From Acidobacteriota bacterium (GTDB lineage Bacteria; Acidobacteriota; Polarisedimenticolia; Polarisedimenticolales; JAIQFR01): 64,000 nt of DNA. The notes beneath the pieces were generated by a model that made no database searches, was not told where the DNA came from, and saw only the letters and a program-made list of their open reading frames with translations. The DNA is taken from NCBI GenBank assembly GCA_041494445.1, contig JBGQAU010000004.1:278-64277 (forward strand), written 5' to 3'. Positions within the stretch are counted from its first letter, which is position 1; each line of letters begins with the position of its first letter. Positions 7,670 through 28,357 of the stretch are shown in pieces. Made by a program: the position numbers and the translations under genes.

Positions 7670-7923
7670 CCCGCGGGCCCGAAAACCGCGCCTCCATCAT
7701 ACGATGACAGCTCGAACTGCGGCGGGACGCGAAGACTCGGGCCTACTTCAGAACCGCCTGACGGCCTTGTTGCGCCCCAGCTTCAGGACCTTCACGTCGG
7801 GATGGACGAGCGCGCCGTCTCAAATGGGCGGCAGAGCACCCCGGGGTGGCGGCGAGCTGCTGGAGCAGCTCCGTGGCAGGGACGCTCCAAGACCCGGGCG
7901 GGCGCTCGTCCATGGGAGTCCCC

Positions 7924-8619: not shown

Positions 8620-8716
8620 CGCATTGCTCCCTAATCCGGCTGCCTGGCAGCGGGGAATCTCACAGCCCAGGCCTCTTGGGGCGGGCCTATCCCGGGTCGT
8701 GCAGACTGGGGCGAGC

Positions 8717-9760: not shown

Positions 9761-10038
9761 CAGCGACTTCCCTTGAGAGCGGCCGAGGTTCGCTGCGTGG
9801 ATCTCATGTCCCGCCTCCCCTCCCGACCCGGCGACGCGTCCATCTCCGCGCATGACTGCGAGCGGGTTATCCTCGGCCGAGTCTACACCCCCGTCGCGGC
9901 CGCGACGAGCGGGCTTGCCGCGGTTCCGGCGGTCTGCCCGCGGACGCACGTCGGCGCGAGGATGCGCGTCGGAGTCGGTATAATACCAGGGGGCGCTGGG
10001 GGCGGTCGCGCGGCTCGGGTTCGTCCGGGAGAAACGGC

Positions 10039-10731
10039 GTGAGTCTCGAAGTTCCTGCCATCCTGGAAGGCCGCGGGCTCGTGAGGAACTATCGCCTGGG
10101 CGCCACCGTGGTTCCCGCCTTGAGGGGAGTTCGTCTGGAGATCCGGCGCGGCGAGTTCCTCGTCCTCCAGGGACCCTCCGGATCGGGGAAGACGACCCTG
10201 ATGAACCTGCTGGGCCTTCTGGACCGGCCTGACGAGGGGGAGATGTTGCTCGACGGCCGCGGGATCGAAGGGCTGGACGAGAATGCCCTCGCGGACCTAC
10301 GCCGGGACCGCATCGGTTTCGTCTTCCAGACCTTCAACCTCGTTCCGGTCCTCACGATCGCGGAGAACGTGGAGTATCCGTTGATGCTCAAAGGCGTGCC
10401 CCCGATCGAGAGACGGCGGCGGGCCCACAGCCTGCTCGCCCGGGTGGGACTCGCCGGCAGGGAAGCGTCCCGACCGGACCTGCTCTCCGGAGGCGAACGT
10501 CAACGAGTCGCGATCGCCCGCGCGGTGGTCAACGAGCCCGACGTCGTTCTGGCGGACGAGCCCACCGCGAGCCTCGACACGCGGACCTCCGACGAGATCC
10601 TCCGCCTCGTGGACGAGCTCAACGAGGAACGTGGCGTGGCCTTCGTCGTGGCCACCCACGATCCGAAGGTGGTCGCGAAAGCCCGCCGAGTCCTCACCCT
10701 CCAGGACGGACGCTTCGTGGAGACGGAATGA
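10039..10731 (+). CDS. ABC transporter ATP-binding protein (LolD/MacB-type)
   Basis: Walker A GPSGSGKTT, signature LSGGERQRVAIARA and Walker B VVLADEPT are all present. Confidence 0.9.
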   Translation: MSLEVPAILEGRGLVRNYRLGATVVPALRGVRLEIRRGEFLVLQGPSGSGKTTLMNLLGLLDRPDEGEMLLDGRGIEGLDENALADLRRDRIGFVFQTFNLVPVLTIAENVEYPLMLKGVPPIERRRRAHSLLARVGLAGREASRPDLLSGGERQRVAIARAVVNEPDVVLADEPTASLDTRTSDEILRLVDELNEERGVAFVVATHDPKVVAKARRVLTLQDGRFVETE

Positions 10732-11954
10732 CCCTCTGGCACCTGGCCCTTCGCAACGTCGCCCGCAACCGGCGCAGAAGCCTGCTCACGGGGGGTGTCG
10801 TCGTATTCGGGTTCGCTGCCTTCGCGCTGGCGGGTGGCTTCATGGCGCAGAGCCTCGAAGGGCTACGCGAGGGGACGATCCGGAGCGGACTGGGGCACGT
10901 GCAGCTTGCCGATCCCGCGGAGTTCGAGGGCGGCGGCGAAGGGTCGCTGGAGCACGGGCTCGACGCGGCCGATCGGATCGAACGGATCCTGAGACGCGAT
11001 GCGGATGTGGTGGAGATCCTGCCGCGGATCGAATTCGTCGGGCTCCTGAGCGGGGAGGGCCGGTCCGTACCGTTTCTCGGAGTGGGACTCGATCCGATTC
11101 CCGAGGCTCGAACGATGGACTACCCCGACATCCTCGCGTCCGGCCGCTGGCTCAGGGACCGGAGCGAGCGCTGCGTCGTTCTCGGCGTCGGTCTGGCACG
11201 GGCGCTCTCGGTACGGGACGGGGACACGGTGACGATGCTCGCCACCACCGCCGATGGCGTCCTGAACGCCGTCGACGCGACCGTCGTGGGCCTGGTCGAC
11301 ATCCCGATCCGGGAGCTGAGCGAACGCTACCTGGCCACATCGCTGAGCCTGGCGGGCGAGCTGCTGGGAGTCTCGGACCGGGTCTCGAGGCTCGTCGTCG
11401 TGCTCCGCTCCGCCGGCAAAGCACCGGAAGCGCTCGAGAGGCTGAGGCAGCTGCTGCGGCGCGAAGGGATCGAGCTCGCCGGAAGAACCTGGGAAGATCT
11501 GGCGGTCTTCTATCGCCAGGTGCGTCTGCTGTACCTCGGGATATTCGGATTCATGGGGCTGGTCCTCGTGGTCGTCGTTCTCCTGGCCGCGGCGAACACC
11601 ATGCTGATGGCGGCGGCCGAGAGGACGCGCGAGATCGGAACGCTTCGCGCCCTCGGCACGCGACCGGGCCTGATCCGGCGACTGTTCCTGCTCGAGGGCA
11701 TCCTTCTCGCGGCGGGCGGCTGCGTCGTCGGCGCGGCGCTCTCGGTCGTGCTTCGTCTCGTCCTGAACCACTCCGGGATCATGCTCCCGCCGCCTCCCGG
11801 CGCCGCCCACGGCTCGCCTCTTCACGTGCAGTTCTTCGGACTCGCATACGGGGCCGGAGCAGCCGCCATGTTCGTGACGCTCACGCTCGCGTCGTACTTT
11901 CCGGCCCGCCGTGCGTCGAGAATGTCGATCGTGGACGCCCTGACCCATGTCTGA
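10728..11954 (+). CDS. ABC transporter permease, FtsX/LolC/E-like
   Basis: 408 aa with an N-terminal TM helix, a large periplasmic loop and three C-terminal TM helices. It shares an ATGA overlap with the ATPase gene. Confidence 0.8.
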   Translation: MTLWHLALRNVARNRRRSLLTGGVVVFGFAAFALAGGFMAQSLEGLREGTIRSGLGHVQLADPAEFEGGGEGSLEHGLDAADRIERILRRDADVVEILPRIEFVGLLSGEGRSVPFLGVGLDPIPEARTMDYPDILASGRWLRDRSERCVVLGVGLARALSVRDGDTVTMLATTADGVLNAVDATVVGLVDIPIRELSERYLATSLSLAGELLGVSDRVSRLVVVLRSAGKAPEALERLRQLLRREGIELAGRTWEDLAVFYRQVRLLYLGIFGFMGLVLVVVVLLAAANTMLMAAAERTREIGTLRALGTRPGLIRRLFLLEGILLAAGGCVVGAALSVVLRLVLNHSGIMLPPPPGAAHGSPLHVQFFGLAYGAGAAAMFVTLTLASYFPARRASRMSIVDALTHV

Positions 11955-12738
11955 CCGTGACCGAGTCGGGCGTCGACGCCCCGGAGGTCGACTCGGGGCC
12001 GGGATCGCACTCCTTCTCTTCACGGGGCTCGGCTCGCAGTCGAGCGCCGGGATCCCCGCGCAGGAGTTGCTCGAAGCCGCGGACGCGCCGCGGCACGTCA
12101 TCGAGGAGGGCGTGATCTCGGTGCGGGTGGTCGTGCGGGAGCGTGACGGGACCACCGCGGAGTCCGAGCTGGGGGTGTACGTCAGGGGCTCCGACAACAC
12201 CCTCTGCGTCTTCCGGGAGGGCAAGCAGAAGGGGAGGAAGGTCCTCGTGGTCGGGAACCGGGTCTGGTTGATCGTCCCGGGTTCGAAGCGTCTCGTCGCC
12301 GTCAGTGCCAACCAGCGGCTCCTGGGAGGAGCCTCGGTGGCCGATCTGGCCCGGCTGCGGCTGGCCGACGAATTCGACGGGACTCTGAGGGACGGTGCGG
12401 AATCCTACGAGGACATACCATGCTGGGTCCTGGATCTGAAGGCGAGAAGCGCGAGGTCTTCCTACGCCGCCGGCACGCTCTGGGTCGGAATGAAGGACCG
12501 ACTTCCACGACGGTTGCGCCTGACGCTGCGCTCCGGGAAAGAGGCGAAGGAAATTCTCTTCAGGTCCTTTCGCCGGGAGGGGAGCCGAGCGGTTCTCGCC
12601 CAGATGGAGATCCGGCACCTTCTCGCCCACGAGCGAGGGGAGGTGACCGTTCTCGACTTCCTTCGCTATCAGCCCGCGTCCCTGGATTCAGCGATCTTCT
12701 CTCCGGCGGGTGCGCAGTCCTCCCGCGACGCGCCGTGA
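11947..12738 (+). CDS. LolA-like outer-membrane lipoprotein-sorting protein
   Basis: It has a signal peptide. Its length and the C-terminal pattern (...MEIRHLL...VTVLDFLRYQPASLDSAIFSP) are typical of the LolA_like family found next to FtsX permeases. Confidence 0.6.
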   Translation: MSDRDRVGRRRPGGRLGAGIALLLFTGLGSQSSAGIPAQELLEAADAPRHVIEEGVISVRVVVRERDGTTAESELGVYVRGSDNTLCVFREGKQKGRKVLVVGNRVWLIVPGSKRLVAVSANQRLLGGASVADLARLRLADEFDGTLRDGAESYEDIPCWVLDLKARSARSSYAAGTLWVGMKDRLPRRLRLTLRSGKEAKEILFRSFRREGSRAVLAQMEIRHLLAHERGEVTVLDFLRYQPASLDSAIFSPAGAQSSRDAP

Positions 12739-12832
12739 AATCGTCGACCGGTGAGGGGGCCCGACGTGACCGCGCTCGGGAAGGTTCGCTCGGCGGCAGG
12801 GAGATCCTCGCCGCGGATGCGGGGGTCTTCGA

Positions 12833-13768
12833 ATGAGCCGGTGGTACACCCACGGCTGGAACACGACGACGTCGCTGCGGTTGATTCTCACCATCGTCCC
12901 GCGCGTGCCACGGTGGCTGGTTCCTGCCATGGGCGCCGTGACCACGGCGATCTGCCTCGCCGGCATGAAACGCGAGCGGAAGGCCGTGACACGAAACCTC
13001 CGTCGCGTTCTGGGTCGGGGCGGCTGGCGCCTGCGCCGCGTCGCCTGGAGCCTCTTCTACAACTTCAGCCGCTTCATGGTGAGCTACTGCGATCTGTCGA
13101 CCATGACTCCCGAGCGGCTGGGGTCGCGTCTTGCCGCGGATCCGTCCGGAGAGCATCGGATCCGCGCCGCTCTGGACCGCGGCAACGGCGTCGTCGCCCT
13201 CACGGCCCACCTCGGGAACTGGGAGGTCGCGACGCGGATGCTTCAGGGCACCGGACGTCCCGTACGCGTGGCGATGCAGCTCGAGCGGGCCAACGCGGCG
13301 GAGCGATGGCTGAATCGTCTGCGGGAGCAAGGGGGCGTCCGTGTCCTGCAGGTCGGGCAGGACCCGGGAAGCGTGCTCGCGCTCCGCGCCGCGCTCGCGA
13401 GGAACGAGATCGTGGCGATGCAGGGAGACCGCGCGCCGGGCGATCGGGTTGTCGAGGTCGACCTGTTCGGCGCGCCGTTCCGGTTTCCGCTGGGTCCCTT
13501 CCTGCTGGCGTATGGCTGCGATGCTCCGCTGATTCCGGCGTTCGTCTTGCAGGAAGGTTGGTGGCGCTGGCGCAGCGAGGTCGGCGAGCCGGTCCGGTTC
13601 CCGCGCACCGGAGACCGGCACGCCGACATCGTCGCGGGCGTCTCCCAGTACGCGGCGCAGCTCGAGCGTGTCGTCCGGTGTCATCCGGATCAGTGGTTCA
13701 ACTTCTACGACCTCTGGCCGTCGTCCGAGCCGGCGGGCTCGAATCGTGAGGGGTCACCGCGTGAGTGA
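12833..13768 (+). CDS. LpxL/HtrB-like lysophospholipid (lipid A-type) acyltransferase
   Basis: It has the HLGNWE (HX4[D/E]) acyltransferase motif and an N-terminal TM helix. Confidence 0.7.
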   Translation: MSRWYTHGWNTTTSLRLILTIVPRVPRWLVPAMGAVTTAICLAGMKRERKAVTRNLRRVLGRGGWRLRRVAWSLFYNFSRFMVSYCDLSTMTPERLGSRLAADPSGEHRIRAALDRGNGVVALTAHLGNWEVATRMLQGTGRPVRVAMQLERANAAERWLNRLREQGGVRVLQVGQDPGSVLALRAALARNEIVAMQGDRAPGDRVVEVDLFGAPFRFPLGPFLLAYGCDAPLIPAFVLQEGWWRWRSEVGEPVRFPRTGDRHADIVAGVSQYAAQLERVVRCHPDQWFNFYDLWPSSEPAGSNREGSPRE

Positions 13769-13848
13769 CCCCCTGGCCGGGAGAGGAACCGAGCGAGCGG
13801 CCTCGCGCTCGTCACGGGTCGCGCGCTTGGCATGATACGATATCTTCT

Positions 13849-14142
13849 ATGATCGAGGACGGTCCGCTGAGGCAGGAGCTGAAAGACCTGCTGCTAGCGA
13901 GGTTGCGCCTCCCGGGCGTGTCGGCGGACTCCATTCGAGACGACGATCCCCTCGTGGGGGGGCCGCTGGGTCTGGACTCCATCGACGTGCTCGAGCTCAC
14001 TCTCGCCGTCGAGGAGCGATACGGCTTCAAGATCGCGGACGAGAAGGTCGGGCGGGAGGCGTTCCGGTCGATCGCCAGGCTTGCCGAGTTCGTGCGCCAG
14101 CAGCGTGTCTCCGGCGGTGGCCCGGGATCCGCCCGTACATGA
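13849..14142 (+). CDS. Acyl carrier protein
   Basis: LGLDSIDVLEL is a phosphopantetheine attachment motif. It is about 97 aa from Met 29 of the track ORF, and its stop overlaps the KS start. Confidence 0.8.
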   Translation: MIEDGPLRQELKDLLLARLRLPGVSADSIRDDDPLVGGPLGLDSIDVLELTLAVEERYGFKIADEKVGREAFRSIARLAEFVRQQRVSGGGPGSART

Positions 14143-15353
14143 CCGGCGTGAAGCGCGAGTCTCGTGTCGTCATCACGGGCTGCGGGACCATCAACGCCCT
14201 GGGGCGCGACGTTCAGTCCTCGTGGGATCGTCTCGTCGCCGGCCGATGCGGAATCGGCCTTCTTAGCGCCCCTCTCGGAGGGGGACCCGTTCGGTTCGCC
14301 GCTGCCGTGAGCGAACCGCTGCCGGGAGCAGGCGCGTCGGCGATTTCTTCGCGGACCGCCCGTCTGGCTCTGGCGGCTGCGGAAGAGGCCGCCCGCCAGG
14401 CGAGGCTCTCCGAAATCGACGGCCGCGAGCGCGTCGGAGTGATCGTTGGAACGACGACGGGTGGAATCCGCGAGACGGAGGACTACTTCGTCTCCCGGCA
14501 GCGCGGGAGGCCCGGACGCCGCTCGGCCATCGTCGTGTTCGAGAAGGCCGGGACCTCCGACCTTCTGGCGACGCGGTTCGGTCTCGGGGGACCGCGTTTC
14601 ACGCTCCACACGGCCTGCGCCTCCGGCGCTTCGGCGATCGTGATCGGTGCCGAGTTGATTCGGGGCGGATATGTGGATGCGGTAATCGCCGGAGGCGCCG
14701 ATGCCCTGGCCCGCATGGTCCTGAGTGGTTTTCATTCGCTGCGGGTCGTCGCTCCGGAACCGTGCCGCCCGTTCGACCGCAGTCGATGCGGGCTCTCGTT
14801 GGGCGAGGGGGCCGGGATGATGGTTCTGGAACGAGAATCGCGTGCGGTGGAACGCGGGGCGGAGGTGCTGGCGGTGCTGCTCGGCGGAGGGCAGAGCACC
14901 GACGCGCACCACCTGACAGCGCCGGCTCCGGACGGCTGCGGTGCGGCCCGCGCGATCCGGGCGGCGCTGGCCCGAGCGAACGTCGCCGCGGAGGCGGTCG
15001 ACCACGTGAACGCGCACGGCACGGGGACCCTTCTGAACGACGCGGCCGAGGCGGCATCCATCACGGCAGTGCTCGGGAAGCGGACCCTACGGTGTCCGGT
15101 CACCTCGATCAAGGGGAGCATCGGACACACGTTGGGCGCCGCGGGAGCCATCGAGGCGGTCGTGGCGGTGCAGACCCTACGGACGGGGCTCATCCCGCCG
15201 ACCGTCGGTCTTCGCGAGCCCGACCCCGAATTCGGGCTCGATGTCGTCCAGGATCGTGCCCGCCGTGAGGATGTGCGCGTGGTTGTGTCGAACTCGTTCG
15301 GGTTCGGAGGCGCGAACGCCGTGCTCTGTCTGGGTAGGGCGGACTACCGATGA
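14139..15353 (+). CDS. Beta-ketoacyl-ACP synthase (FabF/FabB-type KS)
   Basis: The Cys-His-His triad is present in the contexts HTACASGASAI, VNAHGTGT and GSIGHTLGAAG. Confidence 0.9.
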   Translation: MTGVKRESRVVITGCGTINALGRDVQSSWDRLVAGRCGIGLLSAPLGGGPVRFAAAVSEPLPGAGASAISSRTARLALAAAEEAARQARLSEIDGRERVGVIVGTTTGGIRETEDYFVSRQRGRPGRRSAIVVFEKAGTSDLLATRFGLGGPRFTLHTACASGASAIVIGAELIRGGYVDAVIAGGADALARMVLSGFHSLRVVAPEPCRPFDRSRCGLSLGEGAGMMVLERESRAVERGAEVLAVLLGGGQSTDAHHLTAPAPDGCGAARAIRAALARANVAAEAVDHVNAHGTGTLLNDAAEAASITAVLGKRTLRCPVTSIKGSIGHTLGAAGAIEAVVAVQTLRTGLIPPTVGLREPDPEFGLDVVQDRARREDVRVVVSNSFGFGGANAVLCLGRADYR

Positions 15354-16309
15354 ACACTCCGCCCGTCGTCACGGGGATGGGTGCCGTCTGTCCTCTCGGC
15401 GAGAGCGTGCCTCAAGCGCTCGCCGGCTTCCGGAGCGCGGGACCCGCGGCAACTCGCGTGGACTTCGATTTCGGCGCGCGATTGTCCCCCAACCACAGGA
15501 GACGTCTCGACAGGCTCTCGCAGCTCGTGCTGGCGGCTTGTCTGGAGGCGGCCGAGCAGGCCACTTGGGGGCAGATCGACGGCGATCGGGCCGCGCTGGT
15601 GATCGGCACCGGCCTCGGCTGTCTCGAGAAAACCGAGTCCTACCTTCGTGGCATCGCGGACGAGGGTCTCGACTACGCGAACGCGATGAACTTCCCGGAT
15701 TCGATGGACAGCTCGCCTGCCGCCCACGTCGCCATGGCCCTCGGTTGCCACGGCCCGACCCTGACCGTCACGCAGCGCGAGATCACCGGCGAGAGCGCGT
15801 TGATACTCGCGGATCTCCTGCTGCGTCAGGGAACCGTGGATGTGGTCATGGTCGCCGCGGGGGACGCCGCGAGCCCGGAGCTCGAACGGCTCCTATCCCG
15901 CTTCGCTCCGGGATTACGGCCGGGGGAAGCCGCCGCCGCGCTCGTCCTCGAGACGACGGAGTCCGCGGCGCGACGTGGAGCGAGAATCATCGGATCGCTG
16001 ATCGGGCACGGGCAAGCCGGTTTTCCGCTCGCCGGCACGGCTCTGAGGTGTGGCGCGCCCGAAGTCCTGGCCAGGGCGCGGGAACTGGCGCTTTCCATGG
16101 CCGGGATTCCCCCCGGTCAGGCAGGCGAGATTCCCACCGTCGTGGCGGAGGAGATCTCGAGCCGCATCGGCTGGGTCCTGGCCGATGGCGTACTCCGCGC
16201 GGTCCTCGCGATGGATCGGATCGCTGCCCGGGCCGGGGGCGCCGCCATCGTGGCGCGACAGGCTCGAGGGGGCTCGTCCGCCGCGGTCGTCCTCGGGCCT
16301 GGACGGTGA
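15350..16309 (+). CDS. KS-like protein lacking the catalytic Cys (chain-length-factor-like)
   Basis: It has a KS N-terminal fold (VVTGMGAVCPLG). The position aligned by eye to the KS Cys reads TVTQREITGESAL, with no Cys. It shares an ATGA overlap with the KS gene. Confidence 0.65.
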   Translation: MNTPPVVTGMGAVCPLGESVPQALAGFRSAGPAATRVDFDFGARLSPNHRRRLDRLSQLVLAACLEAAEQATWGQIDGDRAALVIGTGLGCLEKTESYLRGIADEGLDYANAMNFPDSMDSSPAAHVAMALGCHGPTLTVTQREITGESALILADLLLRQGTVDVVMVAAGDAASPELERLLSRFAPGLRPGEAAAALVLETTESAARRGARIIGSLIGHGQAGFPLAGTALRCGAPEVLARARELALSMAGIPPGQAGEIPTVVAEEISSRIGWVLADGVLRAVLAMDRIAARAGGAAIVARQARGGSSAAVVLGPGR

Positions 16310-16312
16310 GCC

Positions 16313-16984
16313 GTGAGAATCGCGGCGCTCGTTCCCGCCTACGATGCCGAAAGCACGGTGGCCGACGTCGTGGAAGCGACCCGACGGGTTCTGCCCGAGG
16401 TCGTCGTGGTCGACGATGGGTCCTCGGACCACACCGCTACGGTGGCCCGAGGCGCAGGGGCCGTCGTGCTTCGGCTGGACTCGAATGGAGGAAAGGGAGC
16501 CGCGCTCCGTGCGGGTTTCCGGCATCTCCTCGAAGGCGGCGCCGAAGCCGTGGTGACCCTCGATGCGGATGGGCAGCACGACCCCGGCGAGATTCCGCGG
16601 CTCGTGGAACTCTGGAGCTCGTCGGGCGCCGGGGTCGTGATCGGATCGCAGCTCCACCTGCGAGGAGGGATGCTCCCGATCCGCCGCTTCGGCAACCGTT
16701 TCGCGGACCGCGCGATTTCCTTCTTCGCGGGTGTCCGCGTCGCGGGCACGCAAAGCGGATTTCGACTCTACGACGCACGCCTCCTGCGTTCTCTGCGACT
16801 TACCGGCACCGGGTATGAGCTGGAGAGCGAGATCATCGTCAAGGCCGTAAGGTCCGGCTTCCGGGTGCTGAGCATTCCCGTTCAGCTTCGATGGGTCGAG
16901 GGATCGACGACCAGCCACTACCGGCCGTGGCGGGACACCGCCCGCATCTGCGTCAGGGTCGTGGCGAGCCGTCTGCGGCGCTAG
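16313..16984 (+). CDS. Family 2 glycosyltransferase
   Basis: VVVDDGSSDHT and LDADGQHDP motifs are present. Confidence 0.8.
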   Translation: MRIAALVPAYDAESTVADVVEATRRVLPEVVVVDDGSSDHTATVARGAGAVVLRLDSNGGKGAALRAGFRHLLEGGAEAVVTLDADGQHDPGEIPRLVELWSSSGAGVVIGSQLHLRGGMLPIRRFGNRFADRAISFFAGVRVAGTQSGFRLYDARLLRSLRLTGTGYELESEIIVKAVRSGFRVLSIPVQLRWVEGSTTSHYRPWRDTARICVRVVASRLRR

Positions 16985-16986
16985 GG

Positions 16987-17739
16987 ATGTTTCTCCGGAT
17001 TTCCGTCGCGATGCACCTGGCGCTCCTGGCGCTGTTTCTGCGAAACGGGCCGCTGACCCTGGCCCTCCTGCTCGGTTACGGCATCTACCACGGGTTTCTC
17101 GCATGGGGGGTCCTCCATCCCAGGAGCAGGATCTTCGGACCCAACCGATCGCGACTTGCGACGGAGGAGCGGGTCGCGGTTCTGACGTTCGACGATGGCC
17201 CCCACCCCGAGGTCACGCCCCGAGTCCTCGAAATCCTCCGCGCAAGGGGAGTACGCGCGACGTTCTTCCTCGTCGGGAGGCACGTCGAGCGCCATCCGGA
17301 TATCGTTCGACGGATCGCGGCGGACGGACACACGCTGGGTTGCCACTCCTACCAGCATTCGTACCTCTTCTGGTCTCTACCGGCGAGCCGGCTCCTGCGC
17401 GAGGTCCGGGCATCCCAGGCGGCGGTCGAGGCGGCGTCGGGAAGGCCGTGCGTATGGTTCCGCGCCCCCGTGGGAATGAAAAACTGCCTTCTCCACCCGG
17501 TCCTCGCTCGCTTCGGACTCGACCTGGTGAGCTGGGATGTCCGTTTCCCGAAGAGGACGTCCACCGACCGCGAAGGCCTCCGTCGGCACCTCCGGCGGAG
17601 GGTCGCGCCGGGAAGCATTCTTCTCCTCCACGACGGGCACGATCGCAAACCCGAAGGGAATCCCGCCGTGCTCGAGGTTCTCCCCCGGCTTCTCTCGGCG
17701 CTCGACGCGATGGGGTACCGGTGCGTCCCGCTGCTTTAG
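16987..17739 (+). CDS. Polysaccharide deacetylase (NodB homology) with N-terminal TM helices
   Basis: LTFDDGPHP, GCHSYQH and LLLHDG motifs are present. The start is taken at Met 33 of the track ORF, 2 nt after the GT2 stop. Confidence 0.8.
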   Translation: MFLRISVAMHLALLALFLRNGPLTLALLLGYGIYHGFLAWGVLHPRSRIFGPNRSRLATEERVAVLTFDDGPHPEVTPRVLEILRARGVRATFFLVGRHVERHPDIVRRIAADGHTLGCHSYQHSYLFWSLPASRLLREVRASQAAVEAASGRPCVWFRAPVGMKNCLLHPVLARFGLDLVSWDVRFPKRTSTDREGLRRHLRRRVAPGSILLLHDGHDRKPEGNPAVLEVLPRLLSALDAMGYRCVPLL

Positions 17740-17958
17740 GTCGCCTTGACCTTCCGTACCGCGCGGCGGCCGAGTCGCCGAAGGCGGCCGACGGGCGCGA
17801 TCGGTCGCGATTTTGCCGGTGGGACGCACGGAGCCGGAGGAGGTAAGATGCGCGCGGCCGCCGGACGACGGGGACCGGGCGGGGGGCACTCCCGAGCCAC
17901 GGGGGGGCGCTCCCGAGCCGGGACGCGCGCCGGCCCGCGAGGAGTCGAGGAGAACAAC

Positions 17959-19833
17959 ATGCCCGGAAGGCTCGCCGAGCGGGCGATCGTCGCAGCTTCC
18001 GACGTTCTCTGGGTAGTCTTCCAAGGCATCCATAGAAGGTTCGCGCCGCGCGTGTTCCAACCCAAATGGGCTCCGTCGTCCCTGCTCAAGAGCACCCAGC
18101 GGACCCACCCGGCGCTCGGGTTCCCCCGTCGCACCCGCTCGCTCTGCCCCACCTGCGTGAAGGACGCGCGGGCCCGGGTGCTCGCGGGAGAACTGGCCGT
18201 CGAGGACCTCGTCGGCGGACACCACGCGGAAATCGACGCCGACATCATCGAGCGCGACGGCAAGGTGTGGATGGTGAAGACCTGTCCCACCCACGGCCGA
18301 GTCGAGGACGTCCTCTCGACCGACCCGGCGTTCCTGCGCCGGATCGAGTCCCTCGACCCCGGGCGCGATTTCCGAATGGCCCCCGACAGGCTTCACGAGC
18401 ACGGTTCGAGCGCGATTCGCTACGGACGCGGATCGGTGCTCACCATCGATCTCACCAACCGCTGCAACATGATGTGCAATCCGTGTTTCGCGGACGCGAA
18501 CCAGGTCGGCTACGTACACGAGCTGGAGTGGCGAACCATCCAGGGAATCCTGGACAACGCCCTTGAGGTGAGGCCCCGACGGCAGATGTCGGTCCAGTTC
18601 TCGGGCGGGGAGCCGACCCTCTCCCCGTACTTCGTCCCGGCGGTTGCCTACGCGCGGAAGCTGGGGTACATGGCCGTGCAGGTCGCGACCAACGGGATTC
18701 GCTTCGCCCAGGACCCCGAGTTCGCGCGTGAAGCGGCTCGGGCGGGGCTGAGGCTCGCCTACCTGCAGTTCGACGGCGTCGGGAACGAGGCGAATCGCCA
18801 CCGGAACGTGGCCAACTTGTTCGACGTCAAGCGGCGCGCCATCGAGAACCTGCACGCCGCCGGTGTGGATGTCACGCTCGTGGCCACGATCGTCAACACG
18901 ATCAGCAACCACCAGGTGGGCCCCATCATCCGCTTCGTCATCGAGAACATCCACAAGGTCAACGCGCTCGTCTTCCAGCCCGTGTCCTTCACGGGACGGG
19001 ACGAGGACGTGGATGACGAGACACGGGCGCGTCAGCGATACACGCTGGCGCAGCTCGCTCATGACGTGAAGGACCAGCTCGGGACCACCGAGCCGCTGAG
19101 AGACTGGTTTCCGCTCTCCGCCTCCGGACCGTTCGCCGATCTCAAGGATCTCCTATGGGGTCCTCAGGCGGAGTGGGGCTCTCTGAGCTGCAGCTCGCAC
19201 CCCGACTGCGGCGTGGCCACGTTTCTCGTCGTCAACGAGAAGACGAGGCAAGCGGTGCCCGCCATGCGGCTCGTGAACATCGACCGCCTGCTCGAGGACC
19301 TCAGAGTCATCACCGATTCGGCTCGGGGTCGGCGGCTCACGCTATTCCAGACCGCGCTTGCTCTGCTCCGGAACATGAAGGTGAGCGGGTTCCCGGCGGA
19401 CCTGAGCGTCTTGGACCTCCTGAAGACCCTCGACGGGTACAACCGGATGACCCTGGGGATCGCGGACCGGAACCGCCACGTGTGGCGGTCCGTGATGGTA
19501 GGCAGCATGTGGTTTCAGGACCTCTTCAACTTCGACTTCCAGCGGACCGAGATGTGCGTCATTCCTTACGGCACCGAGCGGGGAGAGATCTCGTTCTGCG
19601 CGTACAACACCGGCATCGGATGGCGGAGGATCATCGAGGCCATGCACAAGACCGCGACGACTGCGGAGTGGAACCGTAAGATGGGTCGCCATGCGGTCTA
19701 CGCCGGCGGTCGGCCGATCCCGCTTCCCCCGGTGGAGAGCCCGGCGACCGGGGCGAGCCGTATCGAGACACGACGGGTCGACGAGCGGGCAACGGTCGGG
19801 GCCGCGGCCCGAGAGGGCTCTTCCGGCGCGTGA
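17959..19833 (+). CDS. Radical SAM enzyme resembling the tetraether lipid synthase family (Tes / GDGT-MAS, MJ0619-like)
   Basis: It has the CX3CX2C motif CNMMCNPC. The N-terminus carries SLCPTC...KTCPTHG, a zinc-ribbon/rubredoxin-like pair. The C-terminus has ISFCAYNTGIGWR. It is 624 aa from the ATG at 17959, which has a GAGGAG-type RBS. The family call is from memory of this architecture. Confidence 0.6.
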   Translation: MPGRLAERAIVAASDVLWVVFQGIHRRFAPRVFQPKWAPSSLLKSTQRTHPALGFPRRTRSLCPTCVKDARARVLAGELAVEDLVGGHHAEIDADIIERDGKVWMVKTCPTHGRVEDVLSTDPAFLRRIESLDPGRDFRMAPDRLHEHGSSAIRYGRGSVLTIDLTNRCNMMCNPCFADANQVGYVHELEWRTIQGILDNALEVRPRRQMSVQFSGGEPTLSPYFVPAVAYARKLGYMAVQVATNGIRFAQDPEFAREAARAGLRLAYLQFDGVGNEANRHRNVANLFDVKRRAIENLHAAGVDVTLVATIVNTISNHQVGPIIRFVIENIHKVNALVFQPVSFTGRDEDVDDETRARQRYTLAQLAHDVKDQLGTTEPLRDWFPLSASGPFADLKDLLWGPQAEWGSLSCSSHPDCGVATFLVVNEKTRQAVPAMRLVNIDRLLEDLRVITDSARGRRLTLFQTALALLRNMKVSGFPADLSVLDLLKTLDGYNRMTLGIADRNRHVWRSVMVGSMWFQDLFNFDFQRTEMCVIPYGTERGEISFCAYNTGIGWRRIIEAMHKTATTAEWNRKMGRHAVYAGGRPIPLPPVESPATGASRIETRRVDERATVGAAAREGSSGA

Positions 19834-19847
19834 CGACGGGAGCCGAA

Positions 19848-20000
19848 GGGCGCGCTCTGACGCTCGCCGGGGAGGGAGACGAGGGAGCGCGGAGCTTCGG
19901 CATCCACGTTGCCGCTTCCCATCGTGGGGAGATCCTCGAGCACCCGGATCGTTCGCGGCAACTCGAACGGGGCGACCCGCTCCGTTAGGTCGCCTCGGAA
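19848..20000 (-). pseudogene. Duplicated 3' fragment of the aryl/acyl-CoA ligase gene (repeat copy A)
   Basis: About 150 nt are roughly 93% identical by eye to 20858-21010. The fragment encodes ...LTERVAPFELPRTIRVLEDLPTMGSGNVDAEAPRSLVSLPGER with the stop codon lost (TAG to CAG). Confidence 0.75.
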
Positions 20001-20006
20001 TCTACG

Positions 20007-20795
20007 ATGGCGCGTCACAATAACCCCCCTTCGTTGGATCGGTTCGCATGGGCGGCCGAAGCCGTCGGCTGGCGCTATCGCACGGCCGGGCGTTTCGCGC
20101 AGGGCTTCGTGCGCGGCAAACTCCGTCATGATCCGGTGTACCGGGAACTCCTGAACATCGGCGTGCCACCAGAGGAAGGAGCGGTGTTGGACCTGGGCTG
20201 CGGGCGCGGAATCGCCGTCACGCTGCTGGCGACCGCTTTCCCCTTCGACGTGTCGTCGTGCGCTACAGATCTGACGCCGCCGCGTTGGGTGGGCATGGAA
20301 CGGCGCCCCTTCCATGCCGCGGTGGCGCGCGCGGCTCTGGGCGAAGAGGCGGAGATCAGCACCCAGGACGTGCTCGCCGCGACGCTTCCCCGCTCGCGTC
20401 TGATCCTCCTGATCGATGTGTTGCATTATCTCGGTCGTGACGAACAGGACCGCTTGCTCGAACGTGCGGCCGCGGCGTTGACGGACGGTGGTCTTCTGGT
20501 CATGCGGGAGACCGATGCTGATGGGGGCTGGCGCTATTGGATGACCGCCGCAGCCGAACGGCTCTCGGCATGGCTGCGCGGAGAATGGCACCAGGCTTAC
20601 CACTATCGTGGTCAGTCCGATTGGTCAACTCGGCTCCGGGGATTGGGCTTGGGCGTCGAAACGCGTCCGATGAGCGCCGGAACGCCGTTCGCCAACGTCC
20701 TGTTCGTTGCGCGGCGAGCCGCGGGGTCGGTTACGACGGTTCCGAGAGCGAGTCAGACACGCGCATCCTGCCCATCCGTTTCGGACCTGGGGTGA
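20007..20795 (+). CDS. Class I SAM-dependent methyltransferase (APE-cluster type)
   Basis: VLDLGCGRG is SAM-binding motif I. The N-terminal FVRGKLRHDPVY segment resembles, as I recall, methyltransferases of aryl-polyene clusters. Confidence 0.7.
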   Translation: MARHNNPPSLDRFAWAAEAVGWRYRTAGRFAQGFVRGKLRHDPVYRELLNIGVPPEEGAVLDLGCGRGIAVTLLATAFPFDVSSCATDLTPPRWVGMERRPFHAAVARAALGEEAEISTQDVLAATLPRSRLILLIDVLHYLGRDEQDRLLERAAAALTDGGLLVMRETDADGGWRYWMTAAAERLSAWLRGEWHQAYHYRGQSDWSTRLRGLGLGVETRPMSAGTPFANVLFVARRAAGSVTTVPRASQTRASCPSVSDLG

Positions 20796-20866
20796 ACCGA
20801 CTCTCATGTGGGGTGTCCAAGGCCGAGAACCGCCGCCGCGACAGCGGCGGATGCAATGGGCGCGCT

Positions 20867-22225
20867 CTAACGCTCGCCGGGGAGGGAGACGAGGGAGCGC
20901 AGAGCCTCGGCATCCACCTTGCCGCTTCCCATCGTGGGGAGCTCCTCGAGCACCCGGATCGTTCGCGGCACCTTGAACGGGGCGACCCGCTCCGTCAGGT
21001 GGCCTCGAATGCCCGACGCAGTGGCTTCCGCACCCGGGACGACCGTCACGAACAGCGCGACGGCGGGCTCGCCGTAGCGCCCGTAAGTGACGGCGTACGC
21101 CTGCTCGATGGCGGGGTGCGAGAGGGCGGCTCGCACGATCTCGCTGGTGGAGAATCGCCGTCCTCCCACCTTGACGATGGAATCGGCGCGCCCCAGGAGC
21201 AGAAAGCCGTCCCCCGCGGCCTCTGCGAGATCGTCGGTCCGGTGCCATGAATCGGGGTTCTCCTGCCACGGCGAGCGGATGGCGAGCCGCCCGTCGCCGG
21301 GTTCCACCTTCCACTCGAGGCCGGGGAGCGAGGTCCACGGGCCTTCGTCGTCGCGGGTCGCGATACCGCCCGTTTCGGTAGAGCCGTAGACCTGCCGAAT
21401 CCGCCGGCCCGCAAGGCTGGCGAAGCGCTTTCCGACATCCGCCGGCAAGGGGGCTCCTGAGCTCAGAAACGTGGTGGGCGGCAACGGCTCCCGGACGACC
21501 TCATTCATCAGCCGGTAGTGCGAGGGGACGCCGATGACGAGGTCGGGCCTCTGTTCGCGGATCCGCTCGACCCACGCGTGCGGGGTCGCGCCGCGGAGGA
21601 ACCCCGTGCGACCGCCGGTGGCCGCCGGCAGGTAGAGTCCGTAGATGTAACCCAGGATGTGGAACGGAGGAACAAGACAGAGAACCGTGCACGGCCGGGG
21701 GGAGCGCAGCCAGCCCTGTTCGACCTCGAACTCCCGCGCGAGCTGGTAGGCGCGCTTTACGGTACGCTTGGGTTCTCCCGTGGAGCCGGAGGTCAGGAAT
21801 GCGACCTCGGCCGAGTGCTCTGCCGGGAAGACCGCTTCAAGCGGCGCCGAGCCTCCCTCCCGGACACGGATCGTGGCGCTTCCCTCCGGCTCGTCGGCCG
21901 GGACGAGGACGGCGCCACGGCCACCGATGGCGTCGACACCCCGAGGCTCGGCCCGCGAGGCGGGATCGAGGAGGAGGGGCGCCCGACCGGTCTTCCACGC
22001 CCCGAGGAGCGACGCGATCACGAAAGCCGCGGAGTGCGATCGGACCGCGATCGAGTCCACACCCCCGGAGTGGACGGCGTGAGCGGCATCGGCGGCGAGG
22101 GCGAGTAGCCTTCCAACCGTCCAGGGTTCGCCGTTCTCTTCGAGAAAGACGCGCTCCCGATCCTCGGAGAAGGTGGCTGCGAGGGGAGGCCGGCGTGAGG
22201 CGCCGGCGCGGCTCTTCGGAGTCAT
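20867..22225 (-). CDS. AMP-dependent synthetase/ligase (aryl- or acyl-CoA/ACP ligase)
   Basis: FLTSGSTGEPKRTV and YGSTETG motifs are present. The start MTPKSRAG at 22225 overlaps the ammonia-lyase stop (ATGA). Confidence 0.85.
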   Translation of the reverse strand: MTPKSRAGASRRPPLAATFSEDRERVFLEENGEPWTVGRLLALAADAAHAVHSGGVDSIAVRSHSAAFVIASLLGAWKTGRAPLLLDPASRAEPRGVDAIGGRGAVLVPADEPEGSATIRVREGGSAPLEAVFPAEHSAEVAFLTSGSTGEPKRTVKRAYQLAREFEVEQGWLRSPRPCTVLCLVPPFHILGYIYGLYLPAATGGRTGFLRGATPHAWVERIREQRPDLVIGVPSHYRLMNEVVREPLPPTTFLSSGAPLPADVGKRFASLAGRRIRQVYGSTETGGIATRDDEGPWTSLPGLEWKVEPGDGRLAIRSPWQENPDSWHRTDDLAEAAGDGFLLLGRADSIVKVGGRRFSTSEIVRAALSHPAIEQAYAVTYGRYGEPAVALFVTVVPGAEATASGIRGHLTERVAPFKVPRTIRVLEELPTMGSGKVDAEALRSLVSLPGER

Positions 22226-23736
22226 CTCGAGCCGGTGCCGCTCTCGACCCACGCGGCGATCTGCGCGAGGTCCTCGTCCAGCCGCCGGTCGGCGCGGAGC
22301 ACGGGCGACAGGGAGCGAACGCTCCGCAGCAACAGGCGCCCCTCGCGCGAGAGGCGCGACTCGTCCCGGAGGTGCGCCGCGTTCGACAGCGCGATCAGCT
22401 CGCTGCCCAGCACTCGCGACACGAGCCCGACCACCTCGCTGGCGTTCACAGCGGCGTTGAGCCCCATGCTCACCTTGTCCTGGTTGGCACACTCGGTCGA
22501 GCGGGAGAGCGTGCTGTCCGGGGCCGACCTCTGTACGGCAAGGGACGTGAGGGCGCTGCAGGTGATCTGGAGGCCCTTGATGCCGCAGCCACCGTAAGGG
22601 ACGAGGGTCTCCGGCAGCCCCATGTTGTGTGGACTCTCCACGAGCAACGCGAACTGCCGATCCACGAGGTCCGCGATGGACGCGGCCGCGATCTTGATCA
22701 GGTCCATCGCCAGGGCCACATGGCCGCCGTAGAAGTTCCCGCCAAACAGGACGCCGTCGTCAGGGTCCACCAGAGGGTTGTCGTTGACGCTGTTCAGCTC
22801 GACTCCGAGCACCTGCCGCGTCCACGTCAGGGCGTCCCGCGTCGCGCCGAGCACCTGCGGGCTGCAGCGGATCGAGTATCGGTCCTGGACCGGGCGCCCC
22901 TCGACGCGGGGCGGGTCGAGGAGCCGGCTCCCGCGAAGCGCGGCTCGGATGTTCCTGGCGCTCGCGATCTGTCCGGGATGGGGCTTGACGGCATGTACGC
23001 GCGGATGGAACGCCTGGGACCGCCCGTAGAGCACCTCGGCCGCCAGGGCCGACGCCCGCTCCGCGACGCGCACGACCCGCTCGAGCCGCTCGACGGCGAG
23101 GAGGCCGAGGGCGGTCATGACGGACGTGCCGTTCATGATCGCCAGCGTCTCCTTCGGCACGAAGACAAAGGGCGTCAGCCCCGCGGCGCGCAGCGCCCGG
23201 CTTGCGAGAACGATCTTTCCGCGATGCCATGCCTCGCGCTCGCCGGCCAGCACCGCCGCGACGTACGAGAGGGGCGTCAGGTCTCCCGAGGCCCCCACGG
23301 AGCCGAGGCGAGGGATCGCGGGGACGACACCCCGGTTCAGCAGGTCGCGAATCGCCTCGAGCAAGGAGAACCGGACGGCCGAGTATCCCTTGGAGAGGGA
23401 CACCAGGCGCGCGAACAGGACGGCGCGCCCCTCGGCCTCCGACAACGGCTCGCCGGCGCCGCACCCGTGCTGCTCCATGATGGAGCGGGCGTAGGCGATC
23501 TGCTCGCGCGGGCCGACCGGCTGCGACGAGGCGTTCCCGACGCCCGTCGACACGCCGTAGACGCGCTCCCCCGCGCGAAGCGCGCACTCCAGCGTCACGC
23601 GCGACTGCCGGATCCGTCTCCGCCATCCGCGGCTGGACGCAAGCTCGACCCGGTCGCCGCGAAGGGCGACGCCGATCACGACGTCCGCCGACACCTCACG
23701 GCCGTCGACTCGCACGGCTCGGCGGCGCGATTTCAT
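22222..23736 (-). CDS. Aromatic amino acid ammonia-lyase (HAL/PAL/TAL family)
   Basis: GASGDLTPLSY carries the MIO-forming Ala-Ser-Gly. The start is chosen at MKSRRRAVRVDG, with AAGGA 8 nt upstream. Alternative ATGs lie at 23745 and 23757. Confidence 0.85.
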   Translation of the reverse strand: MKSRRRAVRVDGREVSADVVIGVALRGDRVELASSRGWRRRIRQSRVTLECALRAGERVYGVSTGVGNASSQPVGPREQIAYARSIMEQHGCGAGEPLSEAEGRAVLFARLVSLSKGYSAVRFSLLEAIRDLLNRGVVPAIPRLGSVGASGDLTPLSYVAAVLAGEREAWHRGKIVLASRALRAAGLTPFVFVPKETLAIMNGTSVMTALGLLAVERLERVVRVAERASALAAEVLYGRSQAFHPRVHAVKPHPGQIASARNIRAALRGSRLLDPPRVEGRPVQDRYSIRCSPQVLGATRDALTWTRQVLGVELNSVNDNPLVDPDDGVLFGGNFYGGHVALAMDLIKIAAASIADLVDRQFALLVESPHNMGLPETLVPYGGCGIKGLQITCSALTSLAVQRSAPDSTLSRSTECANQDKVSMGLNAAVNASEVVGLVSRVLGSELIALSNAAHLRDESRLSREGRLLLRSVRSLSPVLRADRRLDEDLAQIAAWVESGTGSR

Positions 23737-23941
23737 AATGCCCATCCTTGTCGTCATCCGAATCGAATCCGGGAGGAGGCTGCCGACAAACAATTTCCTT
23801 CACGGCGCGCGCCTCGACGCTTCCTCCCCAGACCGGTAGAACCGTAGCGGTTGACCGAGGAAGCGTCAAGGGCCCGGCTCGGCTTGTTTCCGCCGGATCG
23901 TCGGCGGAGCTCCGGCCCCGTACGGCTGCCGGGCGCCGGCT

Positions 23942-24367
23942 TCACGGGATCGTGGTGCTGATCGTCGCCTCGACGCGGCTCTCGCCCTCGAGGGTGACGA
24001 CGGCCTCATAAACGTTCAGCGGACCCGTCCGTTTCGCGAGGCGAACGGAGACCCGAAGGGGGCGGTCGACCGGCAGCACCTCCGCGTGGAAGACCGCGTC
24101 GCGTACGCCGACCAGGTACCCGATCCGGGGCGAAACCGCGCCTTCGGACTTGAGACGGGCCAGCGCCTCGACCGCTGCGGCTGCTTGGGCCGCGATCTCG
24201 AGGCCGACGAACGCGGGGGCGCTTCCCTCGGAAGCGAAGGGATTGTTCGCGGGAATCCGGGCGCGGCAGACCAGACGGTCCTCCAGGATCTCCTCGACCG
24301 CTTCCAGGAGCCGCGTGGGGCCCCGGTGGGGAAGGAGGTTCTCGAGGTCGGGTTGCACTGCGGCCAT
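23942..24367 (-). CDS. Hotdog-fold 3-hydroxyacyl-ACP dehydratase (APE-type)
   Basis: It has an LLPHRGPTRLL motif and a 141-aa hotdog-size protein. Confidence 0.65.
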   Translation of the reverse strand: MAAVQPDLENLLPHRGPTRLLEAVEEILEDRLVCRARIPANNPFASEGSAPAFVGLEIAAQAAAAVEALARLKSEGAVSPRIGYLVGVRDAVFHAEVLPVDRPLRVSVRLAKRTGPLNVYEAVVTLEGESRVEATISTTIP

Positions 24368-24371
24368 GGCG

Positions 24372-24716
24372 TCACTTGCCTCCCATCACGACGAGGAATC
24401 CGCTGCTCATCCATTCCTCGCCACGGCGGATGTCGAAGGAGATACTCCCGTCCGCGGCGGGCCGGCTGATCGAAACGTCGAGAACGTCGCCAGGCGCGAC
24501 CGGGCGCCGCAGGCGGAGGAAAGGAACGGCCGAGATCGAAGCCTCACGGCCCGTCACCGCGGCGAGCGCCTGCGCGGCGACCGCCAAATGCGCGATCGCC
24601 GGCAGCACCGGTCGGCCTGGGAAATGCCCGTCGAAGACCGGGTGCTCTCCGGGGATCGAGATTCGGCAGCTCCACCCGTCCGGCGTCGTCGAGCACGCAA
24701 GAAGCGGAAAATTCAT
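24372..24716 (-). CDS. FabZ/FabA-like hotdog dehydratase
   Basis: It has an HFPGRPVLPAI motif and is 114 aa from MNFPLLAC at 24716. Confidence 0.65.
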   Translation of the reverse strand: MNFPLLACSTTPDGWSCRISIPGEHPVFDGHFPGRPVLPAIAHLAVAAQALAAVTGREASISAVPFLRLRRPVAPGDVLDVSISRPAADGSISFDIRRGEEWMSSGFLVVMGGK

Positions 24717-24901
24717 CCGCGCGCCGCCTCCCGGCAAACTACGCCGTGTTCGCCCTCTCGCCGCGGGCCTTCGCGAATCGCCAGACCAAGAACAGGTCGC
24801 GGAGAGCCCAAGAACCGCAGTGATTCTGCCACGGCTCCATGAAATGGTCACCGTCGATCGAACCGCGCCTTCCGCCGATGAGCGATCCGCCGACGGGTCC
24901 G

Positions 24902-24921
24902 GGTAGGGTTTTACCCCATGG
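24902..24921 (+). promoter_or_regulatory. Conserved inverted-repeat motif, site 1 (GGTAGGGTTTTACCCCATGG)
   Basis: It lies 47 nt upstream of the PLC-like gene ATG. The 22-mer 24901-24922 is identical to site 2 in inverted orientation. Confidence 0.6.
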
Positions 24922-24968
24922 ATTGCGTTCGGCTCGCCGCGTACCTTGCAAGAGAAAAGGAGTGAAAC

Positions 24969-28345: not shown

Positions 28346-28357
28346 GAGAGAATATTG

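Follow-up and report, generated by a model that had tools for sequence, protein, structure and literature searches.

A rare, pared-down acidobacterial variant of the aryl-polyene/flexirubin gene clusters with a tetraether synthase homolog between its halves

The stretch of acidobacterial DNA considered here (64,000 nucleotides of contig JBGQAU010000004.1, assembly GCA_041494445.1, positions 278 to 64,277, from a member of the Polarisedimenticolia; hereafter the window) carries at 10039–24716 a cluster of 15 genes that is a real and rare acidobacterial variant of the widespread aryl-polyene (APE)/flexirubin clusters for pigment lipids. From its gene content this cluster is predicted, with a probability of roughly 0.65, to direct the biosynthesis and export of an outer-membrane glycolipid of the aryl-polyene type, as a pared-down acidobacterial form of the APE/flexirubin pathway. 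Its assignment to the APE/flexirubin-type type II clusters, already proposed in an original prediction made from the sequence alone, is upheld by pairwise homology to ApeO, ApeE, ApeH, ApeI, ApeP and both halves of ApeJ. The composition of the cluster is atypical, in that it encodes no ketoreductase (KR), thioesterase (TE) or MMPL exporter; this appears to be a stable property of a family, since none of four related loci (L001, L088, L004 and L005) has any of the three either.

Gene content and affinities of the cluster

The open reading frame (ORF) listing, codon-position GC content, translations and Pfam and NCBIfam scans together yield the 15 genes in the order first noted, and every gene that had been listed for the two operons was recovered by the scans. 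The two opposed directions of transcription, first placed as meeting at about 20.8 kb, do converge there, between 20795 and 20867, and the end coordinate 24716 proves to be the true start of the second dehydratase gene. On the plus strand the genes are tightly packed: 4-bp overlaps link the ATP-binding cassette (ABC) ATPase to the FtsX permease and the ketosynthase (KS) to its partner, and an 8-bp overlap links the permease to the LolA_like gene.

The elongating KS (14139–15353, plus strand) is of the ApeO type, with 38% identity over its full length to ApeO of the Escherichia coli CFT073 ape cluster and an intact Cys-His-His triad (the Cys in a TACASG motif and both His residues). The dedicated acyl carrier protein (ACP; about 13849–14142, plus strand), with its DSID serine motif and matches to Pfam PP-binding and NCBIfam PRK09184 (65 bits), is 44% identical to ApeE of the same E. 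coli cluster. In a neighbor-joining (NJ) tree of 33 KSs, which took in E. coli FabF, 14 FabF-like genes from a metagenome scan, ApeO, ApeR and the three KSs of a flexirubin locus, 199 of 200 bootstraps separate the cluster-type KSs from FabF; the window KS groups with the APE and flexirubin KSs and not, as would have counted against the original prediction, with housekeeping FabF/FabB, the position of its family inside that clade being one that the NJ tree does not settle. Translationally coupled to the KS is a Cys-less partner of 319 aa (15350–16309, plus strand), resembling a chain-length factor (CLF), which matches only the N-domain of Pfam ketoacyl-synt and has, in the alignment of all its orthologs, Glu in the column of the catalytic Cys. 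About 12 ortholog clusters of this partner (47–100% identity) are present among 5.8 billion proteins, everything else lying at or below 36%, and it is a good marker for the cluster. Homologs of the partner and of the radical SAM protein discussed below come from Acidobacteriota metagenome-assembled genomes labelled Acidobacteriia/Terriglobia, Polarisedimenticolia and Thermoanaerobaculia. In a metagenome scan with the CLF alignment, degenerate patterns mostly drew housekeeping FabF, the useful loci being only L091 (a fragment), L094, L110 and L122.

The minus-strand operon encodes functions for starter supply, loading and dehydration. The MIO-dependent aromatic amino acid ammonia-lyase (22222–23757, minus strand; Pfam Lyase_aromatic, E=2e-147) carries the ASG motif of the MIO group and a His aligned with PpHAL His83 and SgTAM His93, i.e., the substrate-switch position, while its C-terminal half reads ANQDKVSMG, as against NQDVVS(L/M)G in RsTAL/SgTAM and QEDHVSMG in the histidine ammonia-lyases (HALs). 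The same pattern (S-H and NQDIVSMG) is seen in FlxA of L090, a Bacteroidota flexirubin locus verified by its NCBIfam scores for FlxA (820 bits, cut-off 700), FlxY (689, cut-off 520) and LolA2 (192, cut-off 125); the window lyase is 34% identical to this FlxA. A histidine ammonia-lyase was considered because HutH is the best NCBIfam match, and was set aside, as the HAL-specific QEDH is replaced by NQDK in the manner of RsTAL, SgTAM and FlxA. Since the motifs match these proteins and not the HALs, a tyrosine-type substrate is more likely than histidine. Thus, of the broad "HAL/PAL/TAL" label first given to the gene, the ammonia-lyase family stands, and the substrate-switch residues narrow the likely type to a FlxA-like tyrosine ammonia-lyase (TAL) and away from HAL.

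The adenylating ligase of the ANL superfamily (20867–22225, minus strand; Pfam AMP-binding and its C-terminal domain) is 27% identical to ApeH, both proteins having 452 aa, and is predicted by this likeness to load an aryl starter on the ACP; no FlxY match, which would mark a PaaK-like flexirubin ligase, was returned by the NCBIfam scans. With a FlxA-like lyase and an ApeH-like ligase, the cluster appears to combine a flexirubin-type supply of the starter with APE-type loading and elongation. A weak match of the ligase to the 4-coumarate ligase model TIGR02372 prompted the idea of an operon for the photoactive yellow protein chromophore, which was dropped, the ligase being an ApeH homolog beside an ACP, KS, CLF and dehydratases (DHs); among the genes flanking the cluster and the rest of those in the window, Pfam scans found no photoactive-yellow-protein-like gene, the only PAS domains there being those of a histidine kinase at 29053–30264. 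The DH pair comprises an ApeP-like hotdog subunit (23942–24367, minus strand; Pfam ApeP-like at 22.9 bits, below the cut-off) and an ApeI-like one (24372–24716, minus strand; weak matches to Pfam FabA and ApeI-like), which are 28% and 29% identical to ApeP and ApeI, respectively, and whose orthologs in L001 and L088 are labelled ApeI-like and ApeP-like. The ApeI-like subunit contains HPVFDGHFPGRPVLP and the ApeP-like subunit lacks the HxxxxGHFP motif, as expected for a heterodimer of the ApeI/ApeP type.

For the transfer of sugar and acyl groups, a family 2 glycosyltransferase (GT2; 16313–16984, plus strand; Pfam E=2e-22) that resembles lipid-phosphate N-acetylhexosamine (HexNAc) transferases, its nearest NCBIfam models being PpgS, AglJ and ArnC, shows 26% identity to residues 8–223 of ApeJ, its N-terminal half, and an LpxL-family acyltransferase (12833–13768, plus strand; Pfam Lip_A_acyltrans, E=1e-29) shows 31% identity to residues 341–553, the C-terminal half. 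By these alignments the two would correspond to an ApeJ split into separate genes. ApeJ is reported to place GalNAc onto a phospholipid intermediate before using the ACP-bound chromophore to acylate that sugar, and GalNAc-phosphate-glycerol is given as the APE lipid anchor (bioRxiv 10.1101/2020.12.19.423268). Adjoining the GT2 gene is that of a membrane-anchored NodB-type de-N-acetylase (about 16987–17739, plus strand; Pfam Polysacc_deac_1, E=5e-33), which recurs in the more distant clusters of L006/L094 and L110; the added deacetylase of the original prediction is real and a feature of the whole family.

The same holds for its claim that the usual MMPL/RND exporter is replaced by an ABC system: no MMPL gene is found in the cluster or in any of the four related loci, and an ABC ATPase, an FtsX permease and a LolA_like protein take its place throughout the family. 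The ATPase (10039–10731, plus strand; Pfam ABC_tran, E=4e-33) is of the LolD/MacB type, with 220 bits to NCBIfam LolD (below the cut-off of 308), and the permease (10728–11954, plus strand; Pfam FtsX, E=7e-16) is LolC/E- or MacB-like, its orthologs also carrying MacB_PCD. The predicted periplasmic lipid carrier (11947–12738, plus strand; Pfam LolA_like, E=6e-21) begins with a hydrophobic signal-like segment without a lipobox Cys and has no NCBIfam match. A parallel might be drawn with the type VII ABC transporters LolCDE and MacB, with which the set shares a LolD-like ATPase, an FtsX permease with the MacB domain in its orthologs and a LolA-like periplasmic partner. It differs from them in having one permease gene instead of two, scores below the LolC, LolD and LolE equivalog cut-offs, a carrier of the TP_0789/LolA_like family, and a presumed cargo that is a glycolipid instead of a lipoprotein.

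Co-conservation and the proposed pathway

A nine-gene block (ABC ATPase, FtsX, LolA_like, acyltransferase, ACP, KS, CLF, GT2 and NodB) is syntenic with 47–88% identity in L001, where the ABC gene extends past the edge of the locus, L088, L004 and L005, so that the arrangement is not one of chance and the co-conservation in related genomes on which the original prediction staked itself is borne out. L088 (GCA_020073205.1) is an exact mirror of the window minus the methyltransferase. L001 has two B12-binding radical SAM genes (6963–9800) between those for NodB and the homolog of the tetraether synthase Tes, and no methyltransferase. L004 has one such gene (12468–13853), with the lyase and ligase on the plus strand and neither methyltransferase, DH pair nor Tes within reach; a 157-aa ORF there, tried as a hidden dehydratase, showed no similarity. 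L005 has a second KS/CLF pair (6288–8485), a B12-binding radical SAM gene (15043–16500) and Tes, and is without lyase, ligase and DHs. Counting the window, the lyase and ligase are present in four of five family members and the DH pair in three.

The absence of KR and TE, likewise stated in the original prediction, is confirmed as more than a gap in the window. Neither has a homolog in the 64 kb, whether sought by tblastn with ApeQ, ApeK and a flexirubin KR and TE or by Pfam scans of the remaining genes; KR or any other SDR, TE and enoyl reductase (ER) are all missing from the window and from the four related loci, and a homolog of the second KS, ApeR, was found in the window neither by tblastn nor by Pfam. 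A KR is encoded in other APE-like loci (L089, L090, L110, L171 and L172).

On these grounds the following pathway may be proposed. The MIO lyase would convert tyrosine to p-coumarate, which the ApeH-type ligase would adenylate and load on the dedicated ACP. The KS and its Cys-less partner would then extend the chain iteratively with malonyl units, a housekeeping FabG reducing each beta-keto group in trans and the ApeI/ApeP-like hotdog pair dehydrating the product; as there is no ER, a conjugated chain would result. In parallel, GT2 would put HexNAc on a lipid phosphate, from which the NodB enzyme would then strip the acetyl group, and the LpxL-type acyltransferase would transfer the aryl-polyenoyl chain straight from the ACP to the sugar, the two enzymes sharing the two-step job of the fused ApeJ of Xenorhabdus; with such direct transfer a TE would be dispensable. 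The class I methyltransferase, a recent acquisition, may methylate the chromophore. Finally, the MacB/LolCDE-type ABC pair would pull the finished lipid from the inner membrane and pass it to the periplasmic LolA_like carrier.

The predicted system may be seen as standing between two known ones. With the APE clusters of E. coli CFT073 and Xenorhabdus doucetiae (apeA-R), it shares an ApeO-type KS with a Cys-less partner, an ApeE-type ACP, a 452-aa ApeH-type ligase, the ApeI/ApeP hotdog pair, ApeJ-like GT2 and LpxL functions, a LolA-type carrier, a methyltransferase and the general logic of an outer-membrane lipid. It differs from them in lacking the ApeQ KR, the ApeK TE, the second KS ApeR, ApeD, ApeF, ApeG and ApeN, in its split ApeJ and added NodB, in the replacement of the MMPL exporter ApeM by the ABC ATPase, FtsX and LolA_like set, and in a starter that would come from a TAL-type lyase and not be 4-hydroxybenzoate. 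With the flexirubin cluster it shares the active-site pattern (switch His, NQDxVSMG) of a lyase that would supply the starter from tyrosine, Lip_A_acyltrans, GT2, the ApeI/ApeP DH pair and a KS/CLF pair that is 32–41% identical, whereas its ligase is of the ApeH type instead of the PaaK-like FlxY, and KR, TE, the additional KSs, the amine-oxidase-like desaturases, MMPL and LolA2 are absent. A dialkylresorcinol ester of the flexirubin kind is not expected, because no KSIII/DarB-like gene was found in the window cluster.

Several points weigh against the proposed product. In BLASTP comparisons the CLF (319 aa) has no similarity to ApeC (240 aa), the LolA_like protein none to ApeL and the methyltransferase none to ApeB, which further separates the cluster from the APE systems. 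The lyase scores 278 bits against the NCBIfam FlxA cut-off of 700, and by sequence its lyase activity is indistinguishable from a 2,3-aminomutase activity; both Pfam matches of the DH pair fall below the gathering scores. As no KR is encoded, the formation of a polyene rests on a putative KR acting in trans. Nor is the family uniformly aryl-primed, since L005 is without lyase, ligase and DHs and has a second KS/CLF pair. Finally, the pathway as drawn leaves aside the Tes homolog, which would seem to be more than a mere bystander, being flanked on both sides by cluster genes in the window, L001 and L088 and, independently, embedded together with a PHP gene in L006 and L094.

The Tes homolog and competing explanations

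[quoted passage not shown] It has the Pfam Zn_ribbon_HMPTM domain at the N-terminus, followed by Radical_SAM with a CX3CX2C motif, and matches the GDGT-MAS structure PDB 7TOL with E=3e-62 over residues 92–572. It shares with the archaeal enzyme similarity over the full length, the Zn-ribbon and the radical SAM motif, and differs in its setting inside a type II polyketide synthase (PKS)-like lipid cluster and in an NCBIfam Tes score of 322 bits (320 for the L006 copy) that lies below the equivalog cut-off of 450. Its start at 17959 is preceded by a GAGGAG ribosome-binding site conserved in four loci; an alternative start at 17848, given by one source for a 661-aa protein from an in-frame ATG, was rejected because the Gly/Arg-rich extension is not conserved in L088 and L001. 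Its role as a tailoring enzyme of the cluster is unproven: copies 57–65% identical are present in 80 other acidobacterial genomes, and in 80 of 80 of these species-level loci no cluster genes lie within 10 kb. In an NJ tree the copies of the window, L001, L088 and L005 form one clade, in which paralogy and species phylogeny are inseparable.

The company kept by Tes elsewhere points to an association older than the cluster. Of 51 stand-alone loci, 45 have a PHP gene homologous to window 8717–9949 no more than 10 kb upstream of Tes, in 39 of these on the opposite strand at 6.3–9.4 kb and in 6 directly upstream on the same strand. A third arrangement, directly upstream and divergent, also occurs, and L006 has its PHP gene at 10503–11552. 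In the window the PHP gene encodes a CehA-McbA-type metallohydrolase (8717–9760, minus strand, divergent from the cluster; Pfam PHP, NCBIfam CehA_McbA), with its true start near residue 82 of a 410-aa ORF. The genes that occupy the equivalent position in L004 and L005 share 56–59% identity with it. Together with Tes, the window PHP gene brackets the plus-strand operon, and it may be partnered with the Tes homolog and not with the PKS. Likewise, the HpnR-like B12-binding radical SAM proteins of L001, L004 and L005 are 47–49% identical to one beside Tes in L176 of Candidatus Sulfotelmatobacter, where at 7303–15450 Tes sits amid three such genes and an SDR gene, with no KS or CLF. The L176 stretch is a candidate island for the modification of membrane-lipid tails; the HpnR-like protein travels with Tes across distant Acidobacteriota and is a partner that the window has lost. 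In the Bryobacterales locus L175 a malate synthase gene (8027–9634) abuts Tes, and the window's own malate synthase lies just beyond PHP, which may reflect an old synteny. Finally, a GGA(A/G)GTAAGAT motif about 105 nt upstream of Tes (window 17845–17870) is kept in the window, L088 and L001 despite differing upstream neighbors and is weakly compatible with a promoter of its own. In the window this motif also gives rise to the in-frame ATG at 17848. Tes most likely belongs to an older membrane-lipid module, comprising PHP, Tes and, in relatives, the HpnR-like B12 radical SAM protein, around which the cluster is arranged.

A second APE/flexirubin-like cluster type that includes Tes is found in Terriglobales (L006 1964–16973; L094 5920–20540), with the order NodB, GT2, DUF2062-methyltransferase, KS, CLF, KSIII, two unknown proteins, PHP, Tes homolog, LolA2-like, DH and MMPL; no ACP, KR or LpxL-type acyltransferase was seen in the stretches examined. 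Its KSs are 36–40% and its Tes 52% identical to those of the window.

These loci bear on the strongest alternative, namely that Tes, together with PHP and, in relatives, the B12 radical SAM methylase, performs an integral late step, joining alkyl tails, either those of the aryl-polyene glycolipid itself or those of the diacylglycerol that anchors it, by a C(sp3)–C(sp3) bond and so giving rise to a macrocyclic or membrane-spanning pigment lipid. Tes lies between the cluster halves in the window, L001 and L088 and beside the cluster in L005, and in the distant Terriglobales family PHP and Tes stand between the NodB-GT2-methyltransferase-KS-CLF-KSIII part and the LolA2-like-DH-MMPL part; as the KS tree places the two families in different subclades, the linkage either arose twice or was retained under selection. 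By a rough estimate the chance of finding one particular gene no more than 10 kb from a particular cluster is about 0.4%, so that two cases among some 6 cluster families correspond to a p near 2e-4. Set against this are the 80 stand-alone Tes loci, L004 with a cluster and no Tes within reach, L171 and L172, which are the closest relatives of L006 and have no Tes nearby, and L176 with its Tes and B12 radical SAM genes and no KS or CLF. That Tes is syntenic with PHP, and in L175 with malate synthase, suggests moreover that it was present first, the conserved upstream motif is compatible with separate expression, and an aryl-capped polyene lacks the terminal methyl for a Tes-type coupling. An integral step for Tes is the less likely account. 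The more general proposition, that some acidobacterial Tes homologs are wired to APE/flexirubin-type glycolipid pathways, with PHP and the HpnR-like B12 radical SAM protein, to cross-link or cyclize alkyl tails, is more doubtful still. In the literature, bacterial Tes homologs have been proposed as synthases of glycerol dialkyl glycerol tetraethers of the branched type (brGDGTs), and their occurrence correlates poorly with the production of iso-diabolic acid in cultured Acidobacteria; the same works on Tes and Mss describe no characterized bacterial Tes homolog and no type II PKS-like cluster context (PMC8941075, PMC13159169, PMC13459092).

It is also conceivable, if unlikely, that the product is no conjugated polyene, its chain being extended once or twice only, or fully reduced by the housekeeping fatty acid synthase, to yield an omega-(4-hydroxyphenyl) acyl-hexosamine lipid without pigment character. 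Such an outcome would suit the lack of KR, ER and TE throughout the family, the more so as other APE-like loci do encode a KR. Against it, a dedicated DH pair of the ApeI/ApeP type and an ApeO-type KS working with a CLF make up the machinery by which APE systems form polyenes, and a KR acting in trans would be mechanistically sufficient.

That two unrelated operons lie side by side by chance, one for an envelope glycolipid and its export on the plus strand and one for the utilization of aromatic amino acids on the minus strand, is highly improbable. The opposite strands of the halves, the Tes gene between them and the occurrence in L005 of the plus-strand block without lyase and ligase might invite this view. 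However, the plus-strand block has an ACP, KS and CLF and no starter-loading or DH gene, and the minus-strand block supplies exactly those; the lyase and ligase stay linked to the block in L001, L088 and L004, in the last of these in another orientation, and the ligase and both DHs are homologs of ApeH, ApeI and ApeP. Lastly, the notion that KS, partner and ACP belong to the housekeeping fatty acid synthase, for which it may be said that the KS scores about equally with NCBIfam FabF (345 bits) and the APE-type PRK09185 (343 bits), both under their cut-offs, is effectively refuted by the KS tree, the missing catalytic Cys of the partner, the lack of fabD, fabG and fabH neighbors and the rarity of the family, which is far too great for a housekeeping one.

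The methyltransferase, the flanks and the wider meaning

Of the components first ascribed to the cluster, the class I SAM methyltransferase (20007–20795, plus strand; Pfam Methyltransf_23/12/25) does not hold up as a constituent of the family. It lies between two copies of a 159-nt direct repeat (19839–19997 and 20849–21007) that are 92% identical and 1010 bp apart. The right copy spans the functional 3' end of the ligase gene and the left copy is a decaying duplicate of it, a remnant of the last 47 ligase codons with 85% amino-acid identity and the stop codon lost. In L088 and L001 the end of the ligase gene follows directly on Tes, and the methyltransferase is absent from L001, L088, L004 and L005. 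Bracketed as it is by direct repeats and missing from the four related loci, the gene can be seen as a recent, lineage-specific insertion of 1010 bp. It is 35% identical to the methyltransferase domain of the DUF2062-methyltransferase in the L006-type clusters, and its position loosely matches that at which relatives carry B12 radical SAM methylases.

The genes beyond the cluster—on the left those for the PHP hydrolase, VIT1, malate synthase and isocitrate lyase, and on the right those for a Zn-phospholipase C, KaiC and two-component proteins—are unrelated to it. Isocitrate lyase and malate synthase, of the glyoxylate shunt, occupy 3369–7669 (minus strand), with overlapping long ORFs. A 133-aa ORF at 9641–10042, with no family match and overlapping the upstream region of PHP, is probably no gene. 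The Zn-dependent phospholipase C gene (24969–26246, plus strand) is divergent from the dehydratase operon, with which it shares a 250-bp upstream region, and is not kept beside the cluster in L001 or L088. From 24000 to 32500 the GC content is 0.60–0.64, as against 0.66–0.71 elsewhere in the window, and this stretch encodes a KaiC homolog, two HisKA_3 histidine kinases and a LuxR-type response regulator. Farther away are an AbiEi/AbiEii-like type IV toxin-antitoxin pair (172–2030, plus strand; the toxin match is weak), an ice-binding-like secreted protein (38360–39112), a multi-haem cytochrome (43602–44906), a 1459-aa M36 fungalysin-type metallopeptidase with a PA domain (48301–52680) and a FadB/FadA-like beta-oxidation pair (59044–62320). 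Rfam and tRNA scans of the window gave no matches. A scan of 9500–25300 for sigma-70 promoters and terminators gave none of the former and nine terminator-like sites where 6.8 were expected, a result that is uninformative for an acidobacterium of 69% GC.

APE clusters are regarded as the most widespread among the families of biosynthetic clusters in bacteria, and to our knowledge the full lipid products have come from one organism only; a search of the literature returned no description of the architecture seen here. As a minimal form of the pathway, with no KR or TE, a split ApeJ, a de-N-acetylase and an exporter of the ABC/LolA type, this variant could reveal which of its parts are indispensable and by what route such lipids arrive at the outer membrane when there is no MMPL pump. 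Here, moreover, a tetraether synthase homolog is set within a defined lipid pathway, as happens in two separate lineages. To date, bacterial Tes homologs have come up only as candidates for the synthesis of brGDGTs or iso-diabolic acid, and we know of no enzymes identified behind the membrane-spanning lipids of Acidobacteriota and the brGDGTs that serve as climate proxies. As a tractable locus of 15 kb, expressible with the Tes homolog or without it, the cluster would make the question of the Tes substrate directly testable; were Tes indeed wired to the glycolipid pathway, what a bacterial Tes acts on would become accessible to genetics for the first time, and there would have to be a class of pigment lipids that span the membrane or are macrocyclic.

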